23,875 nucleotides of DNA, filler included, from an uncultured bacterium (GCA_964499705.1; 3 parts of 3 records of this genome joined end to end with filler, not necessarily neighbours in it), one strand, 5' to 3'; counted from the first letter of the whole stretch, positions 14,568 to 23,805 are shown. Numbers and translations: made by a program. Notes: generated by a model not told the origin, from the sequence alone.

Positions 14568-16568
14568 ATGGATCACAAGATGAGTGATTCGGCATCCTCC
14601 CGCGCATGGTACGAATGTGCTATTCCCGAATTCATCGCGACGAAACCGGAGGAGATCCTCGGCGTTCTGACCGCCGGAAGCGATTTCGCCGTAACCACCG
14701 AGCAAAGGAACGCTTGGCTTTACGAGACCCTGTTTCTACGGGATCGGCTTGATGGCTTCGATGGCAGAATATGCCTCGAATTCAACATCCCACGCATGGG
14801 CCGGCGCATCGACGCGGTATTACTAATTCAAGACATTGTCTTCGCTCTCGAGTTCAAGGTTGGCGAAACGAATTATGAACTTGCGGACTTGAATCAGGTC
14901 TGGGACTACGCACTCGACCTCAAGAATTTTCACAGGGCGAGTCATAGTGCCACGATCGTTCCGATCCTCATCGCGACTGCAGCGATGCATCCATTGCCCG
15001 GAGAATTAAGGACTGATGCGGATGGGGTGTACCGTCCTTCAGGCACAGATCCGACTGGATTCCGGGACCTGTTGGCCAAGGCCCTGGCCGTGATCCCGTC
15101 CGGCAAGATTGAGCCACGTGAGTGGTCAAGGTCCTCTTATCTCCCGACGCCGACCATCATCGAAGCGGCTCGATCGCTTTACGCCCGACATTCGGTCGAA
15201 GAGATCGCGCGATCCGACGCCGGCGCACGGAACCTGGCCGTCACATCACGGCGCGTGGAGGAACTCGCTGATCGAGCGAAGAACGCCGGAGCAAAGGTGA
15301 TCTGCTTCGTCACAGGAGTTCCGGGCGCGGGCAAGACGCTTGTCGGTCTCAATGTGGCGACGCGGAACAGGGACGACAGAAAGCCGACTCATGCGGTTTT
15401 TCTTTCAGGAAACGGTCCGCTCGTTCAGGTCTTGAGCGAGGCGTTGGCGCGTGATGAAGTTTCGCGCGCCAAGGCGCGCGGAGAGAATGTGCGCAAGGGA
15501 AAAGCGCGCAACGCGATTCGCGCCTTCATTCAGAACGTGCATCACTTCCGCGACGAGGGACTCGTCAATGGAGGACCTCCGGCGGATCATGTCGTGATTT
15601 TCGACGAAGCCCAACGCGCATGGAACCTCCGTATGACGGCGAACTTCATGAAACAGAAGAAAGGCATGCCCGGCTTCGACAAGTCCGAACCGGAATTTCT
15701 CATATCGTACATGGACAGGCATGTCGATTGGGCCCTCGTCACCTGCCTTGTCGGAGGCGGCCAGGAGATCAATACAGGGGAAGCCGGTATCGAGGCATGG
15801 GTCGAGGCCATCTCATTGCATTTCCCCGAGTGGGAAATGCACATCTCTTCACGCTTGACCGACAGCGAATACGGCGCCGGCCGCGTCCTTGATTTAGTTC
15901 AAAAGCGTCCCCATACCTTTTTCGATGACGACCTGCATCTGGCGGTCTCGAGGCGATCGTTTCGAGCGGAAAACGTGTCCGACTTCATCAAGGCGGTGCT
16001 CGACTGCGAAGTGGGGCGGGCAAAATCCCACCTGCAAGTGATGCGAAATCGCTATCCGATCGTGGTGACAAGAGATCTCGATCTCGCGAAACGATGGGTA
16101 CGCAACAGCGCAAGGGGCACCGAGCGAATCGGCCTGGTCGCGTCCTCCAAAGCGCAGCGACTCAGACCGCACGCGATCGACGTGCGCGTGAAGGTGGATC
16201 CCGTGCATTGGTTTCTCAACGATCGCGACGACGTCCGGTCGAGTTACTTCCTCGAGGACGCCGCGACCGAGTTCCAGGTGCAGGGGCTGGAACTGGATTG
16301 GGCCTGCGTGACATGGGACGGCGACCTGCGGCGTTCAGAAACCGGATGGAGTTTCCATGATTTTCGCGGCGACCGATGGATCAACGTGAATAACAGGGAG
16401 AACCGGGAATATCTGCGAAATGCGTATCGCGTGCTTCTGACACGCGCGAGGCAGGGCATGGCCATCTTCGTGCCGAAAGGCGACGTATCTGATCTGACCC
16501 GCCCTCCCGAATATTACGACACCACGTTTGAATATCTGGCTGAAATCGGACTGCCGGTGCTGGCGTGA
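14568..16568 (+). CDS. DUF2075 (Schlafen group-3-like SF1 helicase) with an N-terminal PD-(D/E)xK-like nuclease domain
   Basis: EF.IPRMGRRID.V...LEFK..QV.DYALDLKNFH; Walker A GVPGAGKT; Walker B IFDEAQR; GGGQEI; QGLELD; YRVLLTRARQG. Confidence 0.88.
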   Translation: MDHKMSDSASSRAWYECAIPEFIATKPEEILGVLTAGSDFAVTTEQRNAWLYETLFLRDRLDGFDGRICLEFNIPRMGRRIDAVLLIQDIVFALEFKVGETNYELADLNQVWDYALDLKNFHRASHSATIVPILIATAAMHPLPGELRTDADGVYRPSGTDPTGFRDLLAKALAVIPSGKIEPREWSRSSYLPTPTIIEAARSLYARHSVEEIARSDAGARNLAVTSRRVEELADRAKNAGAKVICFVTGVPGAGKTLVGLNVATRNRDDRKPTHAVFLSGNGPLVQVLSEALARDEVSRAKARGENVRKGKARNAIRAFIQNVHHFRDEGLVNGGPPADHVVIFDEAQRAWNLRMTANFMKQKKGMPGFDKSEPEFLISYMDRHVDWALVTCLVGGGQEINTGEAGIEAWVEAISLHFPEWEMHISSRLTDSEYGAGRVLDLVQKRPHTFFDDDLHLAVSRRSFRAENVSDFIKAVLDCEVGRAKSHLQVMRNRYPIVVTRDLDLAKRWVRNSARGTERIGLVASSKAQRLRPHAIDVRVKVDPVHWFLNDRDDVRSSYFLEDAATEFQVQGLELDWACVTWDGDLRRSETGWSFHDFRGDRWINVNNRENREYLRNAYRVLLTRARQGMAIFVPKGDVSDLTRPPEYYDTTFEYLAEIGLPVLA

Positions 16569-16689
16569 CCGGTCTGCTGCGTCCATGGCGGAGAATGGGA
16601 AAACGTCGGGAAAACGGAGCCGCTGCCGACCGACGAGGTGGTGCGGATGGACGCACGATCAAAACGGGAGCCTCTACCGAAGGGCGCGC

Positions 16690-16739
16690 TTGACAATCGT
16701 CATCCTAAGGATATCCTTAGGAACATAAGGCAAACCTTA
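16690..16739 (+). promoter_or_regulatory. Promoter with two tandem TAAGG-N4-CCTTA operators for the MNT-HEPN pair
   Basis: TTGACA (16690-16695), 16 bp spacer, TATCCT. Perfect 20-bp palindrome TCCTAAGGATATCCTTAGGA (16703-16722), then TAAGGCAAACCTTA (16726-16739). Confidence 0.75.
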
Positions 16740-17363
16740 GTGAAGAATGCTCAGCCATTGGACTTTCTCCTGGGCTCGCCGGCGCGAGTCGCTGTCCTGC
16801 GCGTCCTCGTCGCGACCCGGACAGAACTGACGGGAGGAGAAACCGCGCGACTGGCCGGCGTCTCCTGGCCACAGGCCCTTGAGGCCCTGAAGAAGTTCGT
16901 CGAGACCGGACTGGTATCCCGCAAGCGCGCTGGCGGCGGCGGATTATATCTCCTGAACCGTGACCGGGAACTGGTGCGTCGGGGCATCATCCCGCTCTTC
17001 GACACCGAGAAGGTTCTTATCGCCACAGCTCTTAAGAAGTTCGTTGGCGGTCTCTCCAGCCTCTCACCGGAATCGGTCGTGCTGTTCGGTTCAACGGCCC
17101 GCGGCGATCGTGGGCCAAGGTCGGACGTCGATGTTCTCGTGATTCTCCCCAGGAAGATCGCTCGTGCGGCTGAAGCCGTCGCCGAGAGCGCCGCGAAGGC
17201 GGGAAGTGTTGCCGGATTCCGAATTTCTCCGCTCCTCCTGTCGATTGCCGAGGTCAAGAAGGCGACAGGAAGCAAGAAGGACCTTATCGAAAACATCCGA
17301 GCCGAGGGAAAACGCCTCGCAGGCCGGGAACTGAACGAAGTGATCCGTGGCAAGAGCGCGTAA
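16740..17363 (+). CDS. wHTH-fused minimal nucleotidyltransferase (MNT) antitoxin
   Basis: N-terminal wHTH (GSPARVAVLRVL..ELTG.E.ARLAG.S...AL..L..F...GLV); LFGSTARGD....SDVDVLV (GSx10DxD). Start reassigned to GTG 16740, downstream of the promoter. Confidence 0.85.
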   Translation: MKNAQPLDFLLGSPARVAVLRVLVATRTELTGGETARLAGVSWPQALEALKKFVETGLVSRKRAGGGGLYLLNRDRELVRRGIIPLFDTEKVLIATALKKFVGGLSSLSPESVVLFGSTARGDRGPRSDVDVLVILPRKIARAAEAVAESAAKAGSVAGFRISPLLLSIAEVKKATGSKKDLIENIRAEGKRLAGRELNEVIRGKSA

Positions 17364-18344: not shown

Positions 18345-19430
18345 TTAAATCGCGGTCGCCGCCGGACGCAAGCTGGCGCCGGATCGACGTCGCTCGGAAT
18401 TCCCGAGCTGCCCGCACGCTCCCATCAGATCCCGGCCATGCGTCACTCGCCTCTTCACGAATTGCCCGCGTTCCTTCAGGCGGTTCATGAACGCCAGGAG
18501 CACATCATCGGAGGGAGGAGCGAAGCGCGCGTCGCGTTGAGGATTGTACGGGATTACGTTGACAATGCAACGGAGAGGGCGGCACCACTCCGCGACCAGA
18601 TCGGCGTCGGATGCGGAATCGTTCACGCCCTTCATGAGCACATATTCGATGCAGTACCGACCCTTCGGGCCGAGCGGATACTCGATGAGCGCCCGCTGCA
18701 GCTCCGCCAGCGGCATTCCCCTGTTGATCGGCATCAACTCGTTCCTGACATCGTCGCGGGCCGCGTTCAGAGAGACGGCGATCCGGAGATTTCTCCAGCC
18801 GAGCGCGGCCAGCTTCCGGATACCGTCGATCCGGCCGACGGTGGAGATCGTGATGTGCGCGACCGGAAAATTCAGGCCTGCGGGATCGCTGAGGACGCTG
18901 ATCGCATGAACGACGGCGTCGAAGTTGTCGAGCGGCTCACCCATGCCCATGAAGACGATGTTGGCGATGCCGTCATCCTTGTAGCGCCACTGCCGCCAGG
19001 CGTTGTTTCCGCCCTCCGGGCCCCCGGGAAGAAGGAATCGTCGGGCGGCGATTCTCTGCGCCACGATCGCCGCCGGATCGAGATTCGCCAGCAGTCCCAT
19101 GCCGCCGTTTTCGCAGAAGGAACAAGCCATCCGGCAGCCCACCTGCGAGGAGACGCAGAGCGTCATCCAGTTGTTCCCGTGATGACCGTTCATCGGAATG
19201 ATGACCGATTCCGTCTCCAGAGAATGCCCATCCGGACCCGGCACCGGCAGGCAGAATTTCCGGACGCCGTCCTGTTCCTCCGCGCGCGTCGGTTCCGGAA
19301 TGTCAAGACCGTCCCCCGTCCGCATCATCCGGGAGTATGCGGGCCGGGCGACGCTCTCGTGCTGTTCCATCCAGCGCGCATAATCGGCCAGCCTCATGCC
19401 CATGAGCGAAGGTGCGGAAGAAGAATTCAT
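18345..19430 (-). CDS. rlmN: Radical SAM RNA methyltransferase, RlmN family
   Basis: [57 protein letters not shown]. Real start is about 19430; the 753-aa track ORF is an antisense extension. Confidence 0.9.
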
Positions 19431-19541
19431 GTGACAAGTATAACGGTTGTCACGCATCGCTCCCATGTTTTCCACCAACACGCCTGCAGCCCTTGAATTC
19501 GGCGAAGAGCGGTGACTAAACTGAATTGAAGAGGTGCGACG

Positions 19542-20597
19542 ATGACCGATCCGTTGTCCGCTAACCCGTCCGACAAATTTATTTCCAAAAGCGATTTCAC
19601 GCAGGAGAGCATGGCGATTCCCGCCGAGCCTATGGGATGCCTGTCGGATGCGCTGGCGCTTCTCATCAACCAGAAATACGCCGAGCATACGCTGCACGAG
19701 ATCCTGTATGCGCTCCGCAAATTGCTGAAGGCTCATGCCACGGTCATCCTCCTGAAGGACCCGCACTCCGACTATCTCCACATCAAGAGCCACTGCAACA
19801 TGTCGTATCGATTCGTCAACACGTACCGCCGTTCCGTCGGCAAGGGGATCGTCGGCCGCCTCTTCTACGCCGACCATTTCGTCATGACCGACGCCGACGG
19901 AAACGTGGACGACTACCAGGACCTCCGGCTCGACTTCGATTACACCGTCGCCGCCGCCGCGCGGATCGAACTGATGGGCAGGGCCGCCGGATATCTCGCG
20001 GTGTACTGGGACCGCCGACCGGACAAATACGTGTCGCTGGAAAATCTCCTGCGCGGCCTCGCCGCGACCTGCTCGATGTCGCTCCTGATGCAGGACCACG
20101 GCGAAATGATCGACCGGCTCCGTCTGATGGACCAGGATTCCGGCCTCTACCTCTTCTCCGCGTTCTGCTCGCGCCTCACGGAGGAATGGAAACGGAGCCG
20201 CCGGTATCACCAGCCCCTCGCGGTCGCGCTCCTCGACCTCGCCAATTTCAAGGAGGTCATCAACACGTACGGCCTGACGACGGGCGCCGCGCTCTATCGC
20301 GACGTCGTCTCCGTCCTGAAGTCGCTGATGCGCGACCACGACGTGATGTGCCGATTCGGAGCCGACGAAGTGATGTTCTACTTCCCGAACACCGACGCCG
20401 ACGGCGCGCGGAAACTTCTGGAGCGGATCGAGACCGAAGTCCTGTCGCGGATCTTCACGCCGGAGGGCATCCGGACGGCCCTGAACATCGGCTATGCCGT
20501 CCTCGATTCCAACGACGAACCGCACGACATCATCTGGAGATCGCAGAAAGCCCTCCACACATCCCGCGTCAGCAACCGCCCCATAGTGATGCTGTAG
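19542..20597 (+). CDS. GAF + degenerate GGDEF-domain protein
   Basis: GAF-like region (VGKGIVG); D..SGLY; DLANFKEVINTYG; RDHD-VMCRF-GADEV; GAGGTG SD. Confidence 0.85.
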   Translation: MTDPLSANPSDKFISKSDFTQESMAIPAEPMGCLSDALALLINQKYAEHTLHEILYALRKLLKAHATVILLKDPHSDYLHIKSHCNMSYRFVNTYRRSVGKGIVGRLFYADHFVMTDADGNVDDYQDLRLDFDYTVAAAARIELMGRAAGYLAVYWDRRPDKYVSLENLLRGLAATCSMSLLMQDHGEMIDRLRLMDQDSGLYLFSAFCSRLTEEWKRSRRYHQPLAVALLDLANFKEVINTYGLTTGAALYRDVVSVLKSLMRDHDVMCRFGADEVMFYFPNTDADGARKLLERIETEVLSRIFTPEGIRTALNIGYAVLDSNDEPHDIIWRSQKALHTSRVSNRPIVML

Positions 20598-20675
20598 TCG
20601 ACTCAATATAGGTGAAGGAGGTTCTGTTCCGCTGATGCTGGACTTCCATTACTGAAAATCCTATCCTGCTGCCAG

Positions 20676-21512
20676 ATGCCAAAATCGACAAAATCTGCGA
20701 GACCGACTTCTGAGCAGGCATTTCAGAGGATCCTCGATGTTACGCCCATCGCCATAAAGGACGTAAACTCTTTAACTATTCGAGTTTTTCAAACCCGGGG
20801 CGGTCGAATAGGCAGCGGGCTGGGCGGCGTAATAGAGGCTCTATGGGGTTTCTATGTCAATAAACACCTTCTCAAATCGGATTTAGGCGCCGAAATGGCC
20901 TGGATCTCGGGTCATGAATACAATGACTTTGCCGTTATCATTTGCGATGAGGATTGGGATCCACAGAAGGGTACAAGCGAATTATTTCGCGTAGAGGTTA
21001 AATCCATGGTGCGAAGCGCCAAAGAACCAAAGGCTCATTTTGACCGCTTGCGGAAGGAAATAAAACATACCGATACACTTGCCGTATTCATATGGGACTG
21101 GGTTCCCGTATCCAAGGGATCGAAGCGTTGTTACCCGAAGATTCTTGACGGCTTTGTAGGCCGGGCATCCGCGATTGCAACACTTCGCGATGAACTCCAT
21201 GTCGCGCGCGGAGGTACATTTGTTCCGAAGAATAAATGCCCGGACGGCTGCCGCATGCCCTGTTGTCACATCGACGAACCATTGAATCCTAACGGCGTAC
21301 GCGAAAGAAAAAGTGGTCCTGTGAATTCGAAGAAAGGTAAGACCACTTTTCAAGCGAATTTCGGCGGCCTCAAGCGTATGCTCGGCGTTCGAGGAGTAGA
21401 AGCAATAAAGACTCTTCAGAAGTTCGCAAAACGGAAAAATGACGCCGCACAATATGTTTCTTTCATTCAAAGGAACTTCAAGAGGGCGCCGTACCCGACA
21501 GAGGCGCCCTAG
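20676..21512 (+). CDS. Putative stand-alone type II restriction endonuclease (PD-(D/E)xK-like)
   Basis: G..IE...; YNDF...RVEVKS catalytic-like motif; Cys cluster CPDGC...CCH; converges on the M/S genes with a 4-bp CTAG overlap; AT-richer than the flanks. Confidence 0.7.
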   Translation: MPKSTKSARPTSEQAFQRILDVTPIAIKDVNSLTIRVFQTRGGRIGSGLGGVIEALWGFYVNKHLLKSDLGAEMAWISGHEYNDFAVIICDEDWDPQKGTSELFRVEVKSMVRSAKEPKAHFDRLRKEIKHTDTLAVFIWDWVPVSKGSKRCYPKILDGFVGRASAIATLRDELHVARGGTFVPKNKCPDGCRMPCCHIDEPLNPNGVRERKSGPVNSKKGKTTFQANFGGLKRMLGVRGVEAIKTLQKFAKRKNDAAQYVSFIQRNFKRAPYPTEAP

Positions 21513-22174
21513 TCATTAAGGGCCTTGGCGATATAATGCTCAAAATCGGCAGGTGCTCTCGCCACGATTACTTTCGCAGCAAGCCGTTTTTTCTTAAGTA
21601 TTTCTAGCGAACGAACAAGGCTCGCCTGCGTCCGTGGAGCAAGCAGGGGAATTTTCGTGCGCATAAGATCTCTGGAAGATACTCGCGGTAGAGCTGCTCC
21701 TGTCTGAAGTTTCGCCAACTGATTCGATACGGCTGCTGAAGCCAGAATCGCCCTTAAGAAGACAGGCGAAACGCCTTCATTCGGTCGAAGCACGATAAAC
21801 TCGGTCGAACAAAGACCTCCCTGTATTTCCGGTACAGCCAGCACCTTGCGAAGATTCGGACGCAAGCGACCATAGAGCACGTCTCCTTCGACGAACTTCT
21901 TCGACCTCGATCTTATCTCCCCGGAGCTATGATAAATATTTCCGACAAGATCACCGGTGATCGTTTCCACATTTTCCAAGCCAATATAGACGAACTTGTC
22001 GTCCTCATTATCAGGAGGATCAGATGACTCGCTGATTTCCCGGCAGAAAGATTCGAGCGACGCCATTTCCCAGCGGCTCGCGAGTACGTTCACGGCGTCG
22101 TCATCGAGATAAATCTCTACTCGCCACCGTCCTTGTTCTTCTAACCGCGCAACAGAGACAATATTCGATTTCAT
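21509..22174 (-). CDS. Half-size (single-TRD) HsdS-like specificity subunit
   Basis: YIGLENVE..TG, F..GDVLYGRLRPNL.K, CSTEFIVLRP, TGA.LPRVS, followed by a conserved-region helix. Starts immediately after the M stop (TGAATG). Confidence 0.88.
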   Translation of the reverse strand: MKSNIVSVARLEEQGRWRVEIYLDDDAVNVLASRWEMASLESFCREISESSDPPDNEDDKFVYIGLENVETITGDLVGNIYHSSGEIRSRSKKFVEGDVLYGRLRPNLRKVLAVPEIQGGLCSTEFIVLRPNEGVSPVFLRAILASAAVSNQLAKLQTGAALPRVSSRDLMRTKIPLLAPRTQASLVRSLEILKKKRLAAKVIVARAPADFEHYIAKALND

Positions 22175-23770
22175 TCACCAGCCCTCTCTTTGCAGAAAGC
22201 GGGAAGCCTCTTCCGCAGCCGCGTCCAGATCCATGCCGCGCAATTCCCTTCCGCTCGCATCGTACCCGACATTAGTAACCTGGATCATGCATACCGTCTT
22301 GCTGTCGTTTGGCTTTTCGCCCGGTTTCATCTTTTTCGCGAAGAGAATGCCCGTTTTAACATTGGCACCGTAAGGGCAGAAAGTGTCAACGGGAAGGCTG
22401 ACAATAATGCGCGGAAGGATATGTTGGAGAAGCCACGACCTGACAAACTGTGTCGAATCAGAACTCAGCACGTTGTCAGGAAGCACGATCGCGAGTTTTC
22501 CGCCGGGTCTTAGAAATTGTATCGATCGCTCGAGACCCAGGATCTCAAGAGGCGAGTTTTTTTTATTTCGCGCCAGTTCATAATGACCAAGCCCCGTCAA
22601 TGCTTCACTTCCAAGAAGCGAGCCAAAAGGGGGATTCGTGATCACTATATCGAACGAATCAGGACTAATGTCCGGATAATTCGCAAAATCGAGCAACGCA
22701 TCCGTGCAACGGATATTGCTGTGACCATCGCCGTTGAGTCTCATATCGGTCATGGCGATCCTAACCATTCGCTCACTCTTTTCGATGCCATGCAACTTAC
22801 CGAATGCAAATTCGTGAAACGCCTTCGATGTCCTGCCTTGCACGCTCGCAACGCTCCTGAGGCATTCGGTTAAAAAATGCCCGGAACCACAGAACGGATC
22901 AAGTATCAGATCCGAAACCTTAGGCACGATAATGGCGGTCATCAGCTCGCACACCGGATTCGGCGTGAAGTATTGCCCCATTCCGGATCGGATTGTTTTA
23001 CCAAGAACTTTTTGAAATGCACGCCCCTTTATGTCAGTTTGCGTCTTGGAGAGATCGTATTCTTCCAACATCTTGTAACACTTGACGAGTGCAGCACTTG
23101 AAAGCCTTATCGGTCTATTGAAGACACCACGCGACCTCTCGTATTGCGGAATTTTGAGCCGAAAAACTCTCATATCATACTCTGACGCCTCTCGATAAAA
23201 TCCTCGAATTGATGCCGCGTGTTCCTCGGTGGAACCAAAGTTCTCGGATCTCAGGACAAGCGCGCCTCGTTCCTTCGCCACTTCTTCTTCATAACTTCGT
23301 GTATAGAGAAGTTTACATAGCTCTTCAAGAGCTTCGTCCGGATGAATGCCGTCCACATCCCTCATGACACTGTGAATTTCGAAGAAGATCCCTTCTAGTT
23401 CCTTGGAAAGCGGGAGTGCGGGCCTTCGCCTTCCATACTCTAACTGCCGCGCAGGTTGGAAGTATTCGATGTCCTGAATCTCGTCCCACCCATCACCACC
23501 GAACCGTCGACGATACGCCCTATTTATTTTTTCTGCCGTCGTAATAACTACGATCCCTACCGTGTTCAGATTTTCCGCCGCGGCGAGTAATTTTTCCATT
23601 CTACCATTCATTTTCTTGTCGTCGGCAACAACAAGAAGATAGGGTGTATCCGTGGAACTATTGAGAACAGTCCCGATGATCGCCTCATCTATCTTAGCCT
23701 CAGTTGTGGAGTCTGTCGGATACAGATATTTCGAGAAAAGGGCGGATACGTTCTGCGATTTCTTAAACAT
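22175..23770 (-). CDS. N6-adenine DNA methyltransferase, type I HsdM-like subunit
   Basis: GQYFTP, LDPFCGSGHFL (motif I), ITNPPFG (motif IV), L.PGG.LAIVLPD. Confidence 0.92.
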   Translation of the reverse strand: MFKKSQNVSALFSKYLYPTDSTTEAKIDEAIIGTVLNSSTDTPYLLVVADDKKMNGRMEKLLAAAENLNTVGIVVITTAEKINRAYRRRFGGDGWDEIQDIEYFQPARQLEYGRRRPALPLSKELEGIFFEIHSVMRDVDGIHPDEALEELCKLLYTRSYEEEVAKERGALVLRSENFGSTEEHAASIRGFYREASEYDMRVFRLKIPQYERSRGVFNRPIRLSSAALVKCYKMLEEYDLSKTQTDIKGRAFQKVLGKTIRSGMGQYFTPNPVCELMTAIIVPKVSDLILDPFCGSGHFLTECLRSVASVQGRTSKAFHEFAFGKLHGIEKSERMVRIAMTDMRLNGDGHSNIRCTDALLDFANYPDISPDSFDIVITNPPFGSLLGSEALTGLGHYELARNKKNSPLEILGLERSIQFLRPGGKLAIVLPDNVLSSDSTQFVRSWLLQHILPRIIVSLPVDTFCPYGANVKTGILFAKKMKPGEKPNDSKTVCMIQVTNVGYDASGRELRGMDLDAAAEEASRFLQREGW

Positions 23771-23805
23771 GACATATTGTCGCGCATATCAAGACACTAT
23801 GTCAA
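23771..23805 (-). promoter_or_regulatory. M-S promoter overlapped by two GACN5GTC sites
   Basis: Minus strand TTGACA (23805-23800), 18 bp spacer, GACAAT (23781-23776), 5 nt, ATG. Sites are GACATATTGTC (23771-23781) and GACACTATGTC (23793-23803). Confidence 0.75.

Follow-up and report, generated by a model that had tools for sequence, protein, structure and literature searches.

Restriction-modification (R-M) systems that enter a new cell must make their methyltransferase before their nuclease; in the textbook account, convergent systems such as AhdI achieve this with a C protein. Here we analyzed a three-gene cassette, M, S and R, that occupies the last 3.2 kb of a 23,875-nt stretch of DNA (filler included) from an uncultured bacterium (GCA_964499705.1), hereafter called the window; its M-S operon is convergent with R, and two copies of GACN5GTC stand immediately upstream of M. 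The closest described system, AhdI of Aeromonas hydrophila, recognizes GACN5GTC, has a methyltransferase of two M and two S subunits, and is termed 'Type 1 1/2' (PMC3874165, PMC2878638); its M has 532 amino acids (aa), and two copies of its S add up to 454 aa (PMC2878638). In the strong MS promoter of AhdI, PahdIMS, the -10 region contains TGA, CATACT and a following GTC, and one AhdI site overlaps the -10 element; methylation of this site attenuates MS transcription by a factor of about 2 in vitro and about 4 in vivo (PMC2275141). According to the same paper, expression of R requires a C protein, which is translated from a leaderless mRNA, and a hairpin separates the two operons; CfrBI is named in the discussion as an analogue. 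M.PshAI, which is specific for GACN4GTC, is listed as 2M + 2[GAC], like M.AhdI (Loenen et al. 2014, PMC3874165).

We propose, with a probability of roughly two in three, that the cassette in the window is an R-M system of the AhdI kind ('Type 1 1/2') with GACN5GTC as its target and with self-limiting control of MS through a pair of target sites in the MS promoter. Its assignment to the AhdI-type Type II R-M cassettes, made by sequence comparison, is well supported. That GACN5GTC is the target is probable, judged from the family-wide conservation of the promoter sites and from the depletion of this word in host genomes. These two independent lines back the specificity that an earlier reading of the window, made from the sequence alone and here called the original prediction, had assigned to the system; what it had stated of AhdI, namely the target, the subunit make-up and the methylation of a site overlapping the -10 element, agrees with the papers cited above. 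It had also described an M of 531 aa, a single-domain S of 221 aa and a separate convergent nuclease, and the open reading frames (ORFs) are as claimed, with agreement from Pfam, PADLOC and fold comparison. The features of the cassette are as follows (TRD, target-recognition domain).

22175-23770, minus strand: M, gamma-class N6-adenine DNA methyltransferase subunit, 531 aa (Pfam, PADLOC)
21509-22174, minus strand: S, half-size specificity subunit with a single TRD and flanking helices, 221 aa (PADLOC)
20676-21512, plus strand: R, Type II restriction endonuclease, PD-(D/E)XK motif D84...E107-V-K109, 278 aa (PADLOC, fold)
23776-23805, minus strand: predicted sigma-70-type MS promoter, TTGACA-N18-GACAAT (consensus match, 10/12)
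23771-23781, no strand assigned: proximal GACN5GTC site, GACAATATGTC on the M strand, overlapping the predicted -10 and abutting the M ATG
23793-23803, no strand assigned: distal GACN5GTC site, GACATAGTGTC on the M strand, with its GAC within the predicted -35 TTGACA (23805-23800)

The stop codon of M (TGA) directly abuts the ATG of S, and the stop codons of S and R overlap by 4 bp. G+C content is 49.3% in the cassette and 59.5% in the remaining window, and M-S-R therefore looks like a horizontally acquired, foreign, low-G+C Type II cassette.

As the original prediction had stated, two exact GACN5GTC palindromes, with starts 22 bp apart, fill the 33 bp that immediately precede the M ATG (23770-23768). 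The M strand here has TTGACA-N18-GACAAT-ATGTC-ATG, with the -10 element GACAAT at 23781-23776. The N-terminus of M aligns with the starts of its close relatives; an in-frame TGA occurs 21 nt before the ATG (23791-23789), and the interval contains no start codon. Because only 5 nt separate the -10 element from the ATG, and no Shine-Dalgarno-like (purine-rich) stretch precedes this ATG, the M transcript probably has no leader, or almost none. In the window as a whole, GACN5GTC occurs 7 times against 8.98 +/- 2.74 expected, and nowhere within the M, S or R genes; this frequency of approximately 1 per 3.4 kb is close to the chance value of 1 per 4 kb given in the original prediction. Since the window as a whole is not enriched, the significance of the pair comes from its relatives and not from the window alone.

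A scan of genomes, one per species, returned 350 relatives of S, of which the best 80 were kept. At 34 of these 80 loci an M (at least 40% identity) and an R homolog were also present, in the order M, S and then convergent R, and a metagenome scan with M added 16 further loci, giving 50 related M-S-R loci. The records with an S-R pair, including the 34 that also have M, came from Verrucomicrobiota, Pseudomonadota, Planctomycetota, Gemmatimonadota, Chloroflexota, Cyanobacteriota, Acidobacteriota, Bacteroidota, Deinococcota, Bacillota, Lentisphaeria, Armatimonadota and one archaeon. The exact 22-bp pair of GACN5GTC sites was found directly upstream of M in 14 of the 34 genome loci and in 11 of the 16 metagenome loci. 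The remaining metagenome loci comprised one with a 23-bp pair, two with a single site (identical to each other), one that had no upstream sequence, and one that had no site but in which the match to M was partial. Together with the window, 26 loci carry the 22-bp pair as 23 distinct 33-mers; on the R tree they represent seven or more named phyla. The 11 bp separating the paired sites are not conserved from locus to locus. Among neighboring sites within 200 bp of each other in the 50 family loci, a distance of 22 bp was observed 25 times, and distances of 23, 42 and 198 bp once each, whereas the 22-bp pair was absent from 46 other, unrelated S loci (361 kb). Moreover, five of nine examined loci with a single exact site had a one-mismatch partner at exactly +/-22 bp. 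Across the 34 genome loci, 37 GACN5GTC sites fell within 13,634 bp of promoter windows and 16 within the other 256,290 bp (Poisson P <1e-29); 14 control words in the same loci gave 1-13 occurrences in promoter windows and 26-163 elsewhere.

The promoter sites themselves (46 sites in 23 distinct pairs) are biased toward GACR...YGTC, with R at position 4 in 44 of 46 and Y at position 8 in 42 of 46. The inner five bases of the two sites in a locus are weakly similar (mean best identity 2.65 versus 2.28 in shuffled pairs, P 0.026). Site 2 of the promoter pairs is usually followed by AT. A third GACN5GTC lies 42 bp past the second in one relative (L007:2105-2179), its three sites being roughly in helical phase, and three other relatives have in common an internal GACN5GTC about 150 bp into the S gene (L021:4151, L026:4160, L027:4160).

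In the nearest relatives, L081 and L082, whose M and R are 66% and 64% identical to those of the window, the promoter has TTGACA with the first site, and TGA-CATACT-GTC forms the second site, directly followed by a GTG start. The junction of GTC with the start codon seen in L081/L082 recurs in L088, L089, L004 and L013 and in the sister clade described below. The original prediction had placed the target adenines of the minus strand at two promoter bases, the A of TTGACA in the -35 element and the critical -11 A of GACAAT. This argument fits only the window and its nearest relative; elsewhere the pair occupies at least three other positions in the promoter. Relative to site 1, the best -35/-10 match was offset by -2 in the window, by -10 or -11 in L088, L089, L030, L040, L027, L026 and L024, by +11 in L007, and by +20 in L014, L016 and L021; these offsets rest on consensus scans, and 9 of the 23 distinct pairs had no promoter match at the thresholds used. 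The varied positions indicate that the conserved feature is the pair with its spacing, not the two adenines.

We then counted GAC-Nx-GTC in 10 host genomes, each of which has one R homolog, and in five control genomes in which the R query found nothing, taking N8, a spacing of equal codon phase, as the reference for N5. The N5/N8 ratio was 0.47, 0.85, 0.66, 0.58, 0.90, 0.71, 0.53, 0.53, 1.02 and 0.06 in the hosts, and 1.04, 0.98, 1.14, 1.01 and 0.79 in the controls (one-sided Mann-Whitney P 0.006); it was 0.85 or lower in 8 of 10 hosts and in one of five controls. In the hosts with N5 promoters the ratio was 0.71, 0.53, 0.53, 1.02 and 0.06, and N4/N7 was not consistently low. The genome of Nostoc sp. 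DedVER02 (G010, locus L014) has 36 N5 sites in 7.6 Mb, compared with 582 N4, 581 N7 and 581 N8 sites, a spacing-specific avoidance of roughly 16-fold, and 2 of the 36 sites are the pair in its own M promoter. A narrower target, GACRNNNYGTC, was considered and rejected: about 10 of the 25 distinct sites listed for the Nostoc genome have R...Y by our count, so that all N5 sites seem to be avoided. Conservation along the whole TRD in 174 S homologs suggests a single type of specificity.

Ten loci (L002, L003, L004, L005, L008, L009, L011, L012, L013 and L023) form a monophyletic, well-supported clade on the R tree, with the window plus L082 as its sister group; Ectothiorhodospira magna B7-7 is one of its members. 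The promoter pattern in these ten loci is TTGAC-GAC-N4-GTC ... TA(C/T)-GAT-N4-GTC-ATG, mostly at about 2255-2310 in the loci: GACN4GTC, with the second copy often GAT-N4-GTC, takes the positions of the N5 pair at a distance of 21 bp. One member, L013, has one N4 and one N5 site, and in this clade the inner four bases are alike between the copies in one locus and different between loci. Five genomes of the clade nevertheless avoid N5 (N5/N8 0.47-0.90, P 0.016 versus controls) and show no avoidance of N4 (N4/N7 0.86-0.99 versus 0.84-1.06 in controls, P 0.35). No clade-specific indel was found in the S helices, which set the spacing between half-sites, and the proteins of the clade match the same PADLOC models as the rest of the family. 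The N4 promoter sites are possibly uncuttable near-sites that are kept for binding; it is also possible that this clade has shifted to a PshAI-like specificity that left no genomic trace, a shift for which the genome counts, the S-helix lengths and the PADLOC models provide no support. The combination of N4 promoters with N5 avoidance limits the idea, put forward in the original prediction, that specificity can be read from the system's own promoter: promoter and avoided word agree in the N5 group, but the idea is unsafe as a general rule.

The three proteins fit the proposed assignment. M contains the Pfam domain N6_Mtase (residues 246-506, E 6.3e-28) and matched the PADLOC model MTase_II PDLC03218 at 503 bits (E 2.3e-151), residues 44-531 aligning with positions 43-532 of 532; in the PDB its sequence matched the M subunits of the Type I systems StySJI (3e-27) and EcoKI (6.6e-17). 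S matched Specificity_II PDLC03590 ('Type II specificity subunit') with E 1.1e-31, residues 3-198 aligning with positions 3-198 of 227. The lengths of these M and S profiles (532 and 227) equal the published AhdI subunit lengths (PMC2878638), which is consistent with membership but is no proof of it. A profile of the S family matched the T. tengcongensis HsdS structures 3okg/5ybb (2e-37) in two stretches that correspond to both halves of a full-size HsdS; the recognition sequence of this HsdS, the best solved relative of S, was not found in the available part of PMC3047542.

R matched REase_II PDLC03408 at 206.5 bits (E 1.6e-61), and its D84, E107 and K109 are invariant in 34 aligned homologs. 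The PADLOC R and S models also matched the proteins of relatives, in 10 of 10 and 9 of 9 cases, respectively. An AF2 (AlphaFold2) model of R (pLDDT 88.9, pTM 0.87) matched R.SwaI (Z 9.3; root-mean-square deviation 4.7 over 153 aligned residues), HincII (Z 7.4), EcoRV (Z 7.3) and NlaIV (Z 6.7), and nearly all of its structural neighbors are Type II endonucleases from the EcoRV branch; EcoRV was also the top Foldseek match (5.9e-4), and look-alikes in the ESM Atlas, taken as leads only, agree with this fold. The modeled fold of R is thus EcoRV/SwaI-like. At the sequence level the R family is compact: 85 of 1.84 billion cluster representatives reached E 1e-3, with no functional name among the matches listed; the R profile had 0 matches among PDB sequences at E up to 10, and R had none among 72,556 plasmids. 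With the threshold relaxed to E 10, S and R still matched no Pfam family, and R had no NCBIfam family.

From these data we propose the following mechanism. M and the half-size S would assemble into an M2S2 adenine methyltransferase, and the separate EcoRV/SwaI-fold nuclease, probably a homodimer (R2), would cut unmethylated sites, presumably inside the target sequence. AhdI, of which Eam1105I is an isoschizomer, cuts at GACNNN^NNGTC. Two target sites 22 bp apart would be built into the M-S promoter, in the window one in the predicted -35 element and one in the predicted -10 element at the start codon. Accumulated methyltransferase would mark, and perhaps occupy, both sites, so that its own operon would be turned down, a negative feedback modeled on the single AhdI site. 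We consider it likely that M limits itself in this way through the promoter pair.

Several observations weigh against this proposal. The published AhdI feedback is weak, at 2- to 4-fold (PMC2275141). The MS promoter of the window is a consensus match, and the region has 3 promoter-like sites versus 3.2 in shuffled sequences. Kinship with AhdI is drawn from PADLOC models with unnamed seeds, not from the AhdI protein sequences. Depletion of N5 was little or absent in 2 of the 10 hosts (0.90 and 1.02), and one control was as low as 0.79. The flank of the window is undepleted, with 5 non-promoter N5 sites in 20.6 kb compared with 7 N8 and 5 N2 sites; this fits the recent acquisition indicated by the difference in G+C content, but gives no support. 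Finally, the N4 clade suggests that the promoter palindrome and the restriction target may not always coincide.

The pair could instead be mainly an operator, at which two M2S2 complexes, or one higher-order complex, on the same face of the helix and two turns apart, would block RNA polymerase, with methylation being secondary. We regard this account as possible though not probable, and it can coexist with self-limitation by methylation. The 22-bp spacing is fixed (25 of 28 close neighbor pairs) while the -35/-10 elements sit at four offsets, and a pure methyl-sensitive contact of the polymerase would predict a fixed position relative to the promoter elements. The GACR...YGTC bias of the promoter sites is absent from the remaining Nostoc sites, on our reading of those listed, which suggests selection for strong binding; in addition, the effect in AhdI is greater in vivo (4-fold) than that of methylation alone in vitro (2-fold) (PMC2275141). 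Taken together, the fixed spacing, the variable promoter offset and the sequence bias suggest that a protein reads both sites together; occupancy by the methyltransferase is for this reason the strongest alternative, or a complement, to a switch by methylation alone. This binding is putative, however: the offsets on which the argument draws come from the consensus scans in which 9 of 23 pairs had no match, common descent together with selection against promoter indels could also preserve the spacing, and the steric fit of two 170-kDa complexes 22 bp apart is in question. It is doubtful whether a joint reading goes further, with the 22-bp pair as a dedicated operator and also as a C-protein-free timer acting by convergent interference and widespread across phyla. 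Two methyltransferase complexes would then lie side by side on one DNA face at the pair. The strong unmethylated MS promoter would first drive polymerases antisense through R and keep the nuclease off, a run-through suggested by the convergent, overlapping gene ends without a terminator. The methyltransferase would subsequently shut its own promoter, interference would end, and R would be turned on; the GACN4GTC near-sites of the sister clade would be uncuttable, unmethylatable versions of the operator.

Two further explanations deny the pair its role as a target. In one, the restriction target differs from the promoter palindromes, the enzyme reads another word (for example GACN4GTC, as PshAI does), and the pair is the operator of another factor or a relic. 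The disagreement in the sister clade between the promoter word (N4) and the avoided word (N5), and the common 2M + 2[GAC] make-up of M.PshAI and M.AhdI (PMC3874165), speak for it, but it is very unlikely: the promoter word and the avoided word agree in the N5-promoter group, the cassette has no other conserved regulator gene (a C ORF was seen, by eye, in only 1 of 36 loci), and the S helices that set the half-site spacing have no clade-specific indel. To the other, a functionless chance pair in an AT-rich intergenic stretch, we give next to no probability. The window total of 7 sites against 9 expected is compatible with chance, and TTGACA and GACAAT each contain GAC; however, the same place and spacing recur in 25 related loci with unrelated intervening sequence and in none of the 46 other loci, and the promoter enrichment (P <1e-29) points the same way. 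The preferred reading is that of an AhdI-kind cassette with GACN5GTC as its target and with self-limiting control through the promoter pair.

Upstream of the cassette, the window contains ordinary chromosomal genes and two PADLOC candidate-defense matches. A 666-aa Schlafen-group-3/DUF2075-type helicase protein (14568-16568, plus strand) matched PDC-S41 near end to end at 908 bits, and the gene after it (16638-17363, plus strand) encodes a nucleotidyltransferase with PDC-S09/PDC-M05A matches; together with the R-M cassette these two genes look like a small defense island. A 753-aa ORF at 18345-20606 (minus strand) has a weak Radical_SAM match and overlaps two plus-strand ORFs, 18438-19496 and 19542-20597, one of them a GGDEF protein (E 2.8e-22) and the other a protein of 352 aa; owing to this overlap, the 753-aa ORF is at least partly spurious, or its true start lies further in. 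The GGDEF gene is separated from R by 78 bp, and R may be co-transcribed with it. At 21510-21537 (plus strand), a promoter-like TAGTCA-16-TATAAT (10/12) begins at the R stop codon and points antisense into S and M; it could be due to chance.

The family is present in at least a dozen phyla, mostly without a C protein, and keeps two copies of its probable target at a fixed distance in the methyltransferase promoter instead. If the pair works as proposed, to limit the methyltransferase, this would be a second, widespread way of timing and limiting R-M expression. It would also provide an annotation rule by which conserved palindromes in the promoters of unstudied systems reveal their specificity, the N4 clade being a possible failure of that rule, and occupancy versus methylation would become directly testable with simple reporters. 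Full-text searches, including GACNNNNNGTC and promoter-site autoregulation, found no printed description of the 22-bp pair, although the search was limited and absence is unproven.

Compared with AhdI (Bogdanova et al. 2008, PMC2275141; Callow et al. 2007, PMC2878638), the window system has the same separate M (531 versus 532 aa in AhdI) and half-size S (221 versus 227 aa), the same convergent M-S and R, and the same placement of the target word in the MS promoter, overlapping the -10 element, which is predicted here; L081/L082 share even the TGA-CATACT-GTC arrangement of PahdIMS. The differences lie in the control elements. AhdI has one promoter site, and the window family has two at a fixed distance of 22 bp; a 26-nt leader begins the MS transcript of AhdI, whereas in the window the ATG directly follows the site. 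AhdI encodes a C protein, and a C-box precedes its R gene; the window has no C gene, as there is no ORF in the 78 bp that separate R from the GGDEF gene. AhdI has a hairpin between its operons; at the overlapping S-R junction of the window no terminator-like site was found, and a G+C hairpin in the 3' end of R lacks a U tract (z = -2.1). The regulatory likeness to AhdI claimed in the original prediction thus stands for the site on the predicted -10 element, whereas the C protein and the inter-operon hairpin of AhdI, which it had omitted, are absent here. Of 34 related loci, 32 have an S-R gap between -34 and +43 bp. Visual inspection of the sequence upstream of R brought out no conserved motif in 22 loci and, in translations of 45-130 aa, a helix-turn-helix ORF in 1 of 36 loci, L030. 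This ORF (L030:5201-5407, minus strand) is a typical C protein, matching C.BclI at 1.9e-13 and C.AhdI at 9.4e-11. L030, from a member of the Lachnospiraceae, combines the C gene with the 22-bp pair and with the widest S-R gap (43 bp), and is closest to the published AhdI layout.

PshAI resembles the window system in its subunit make-up and its GAC half-site (PMC3874165), and the sister clade has the GACN4GTC promoters; PshAI recognizes GACN4GTC, whereas the sites in the window are N5, and N5, rather than N4, is the word avoided in genomes of the N4-promoter clade. CfrBI shares C-independent control through methylation of its own promoter site (PMC2275141), but has an m4C single-polypeptide methyltransferase, divergent genes and, according to the abstract of a 2025 bioRxiv preprint, a single site, compared with a predicted m6A M+S enzyme, convergent genes and two sites here. 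In Type I systems (EcoKI, EcoR124I and the engineered half-S EcoR124I-NT), the M catalytic domain and the TRD fold of S are homologous to those of the window, and a dimer of half-size S would give a symmetric bipartite target, as in EcoR124I-NT. M scored, however, only 29.8 bits against the NCBIfam hsdM model (cut-off 242.75), and no gene for an HsdR translocase is adjacent to M-S in the window, where cleavage would be carried out by a small separate PD-(D/E)XK enzyme instead. The best NCBIfam matches of M and S are to MADS components, MAD2 (173 bits, cut-off 720) and MAD5 (29.1 bits, cut-off 400), both far below the cut-offs; no other mad genes are nearby, the neighbors being R and the GGDEF gene, and in PADLOC M scored 503 bits as Type II versus 128.7 as mad2. 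Among these known systems, the 22-bp doublet, without a C protein and without a terminator, is a new variation on a known regulatory design and not a new kind of system.

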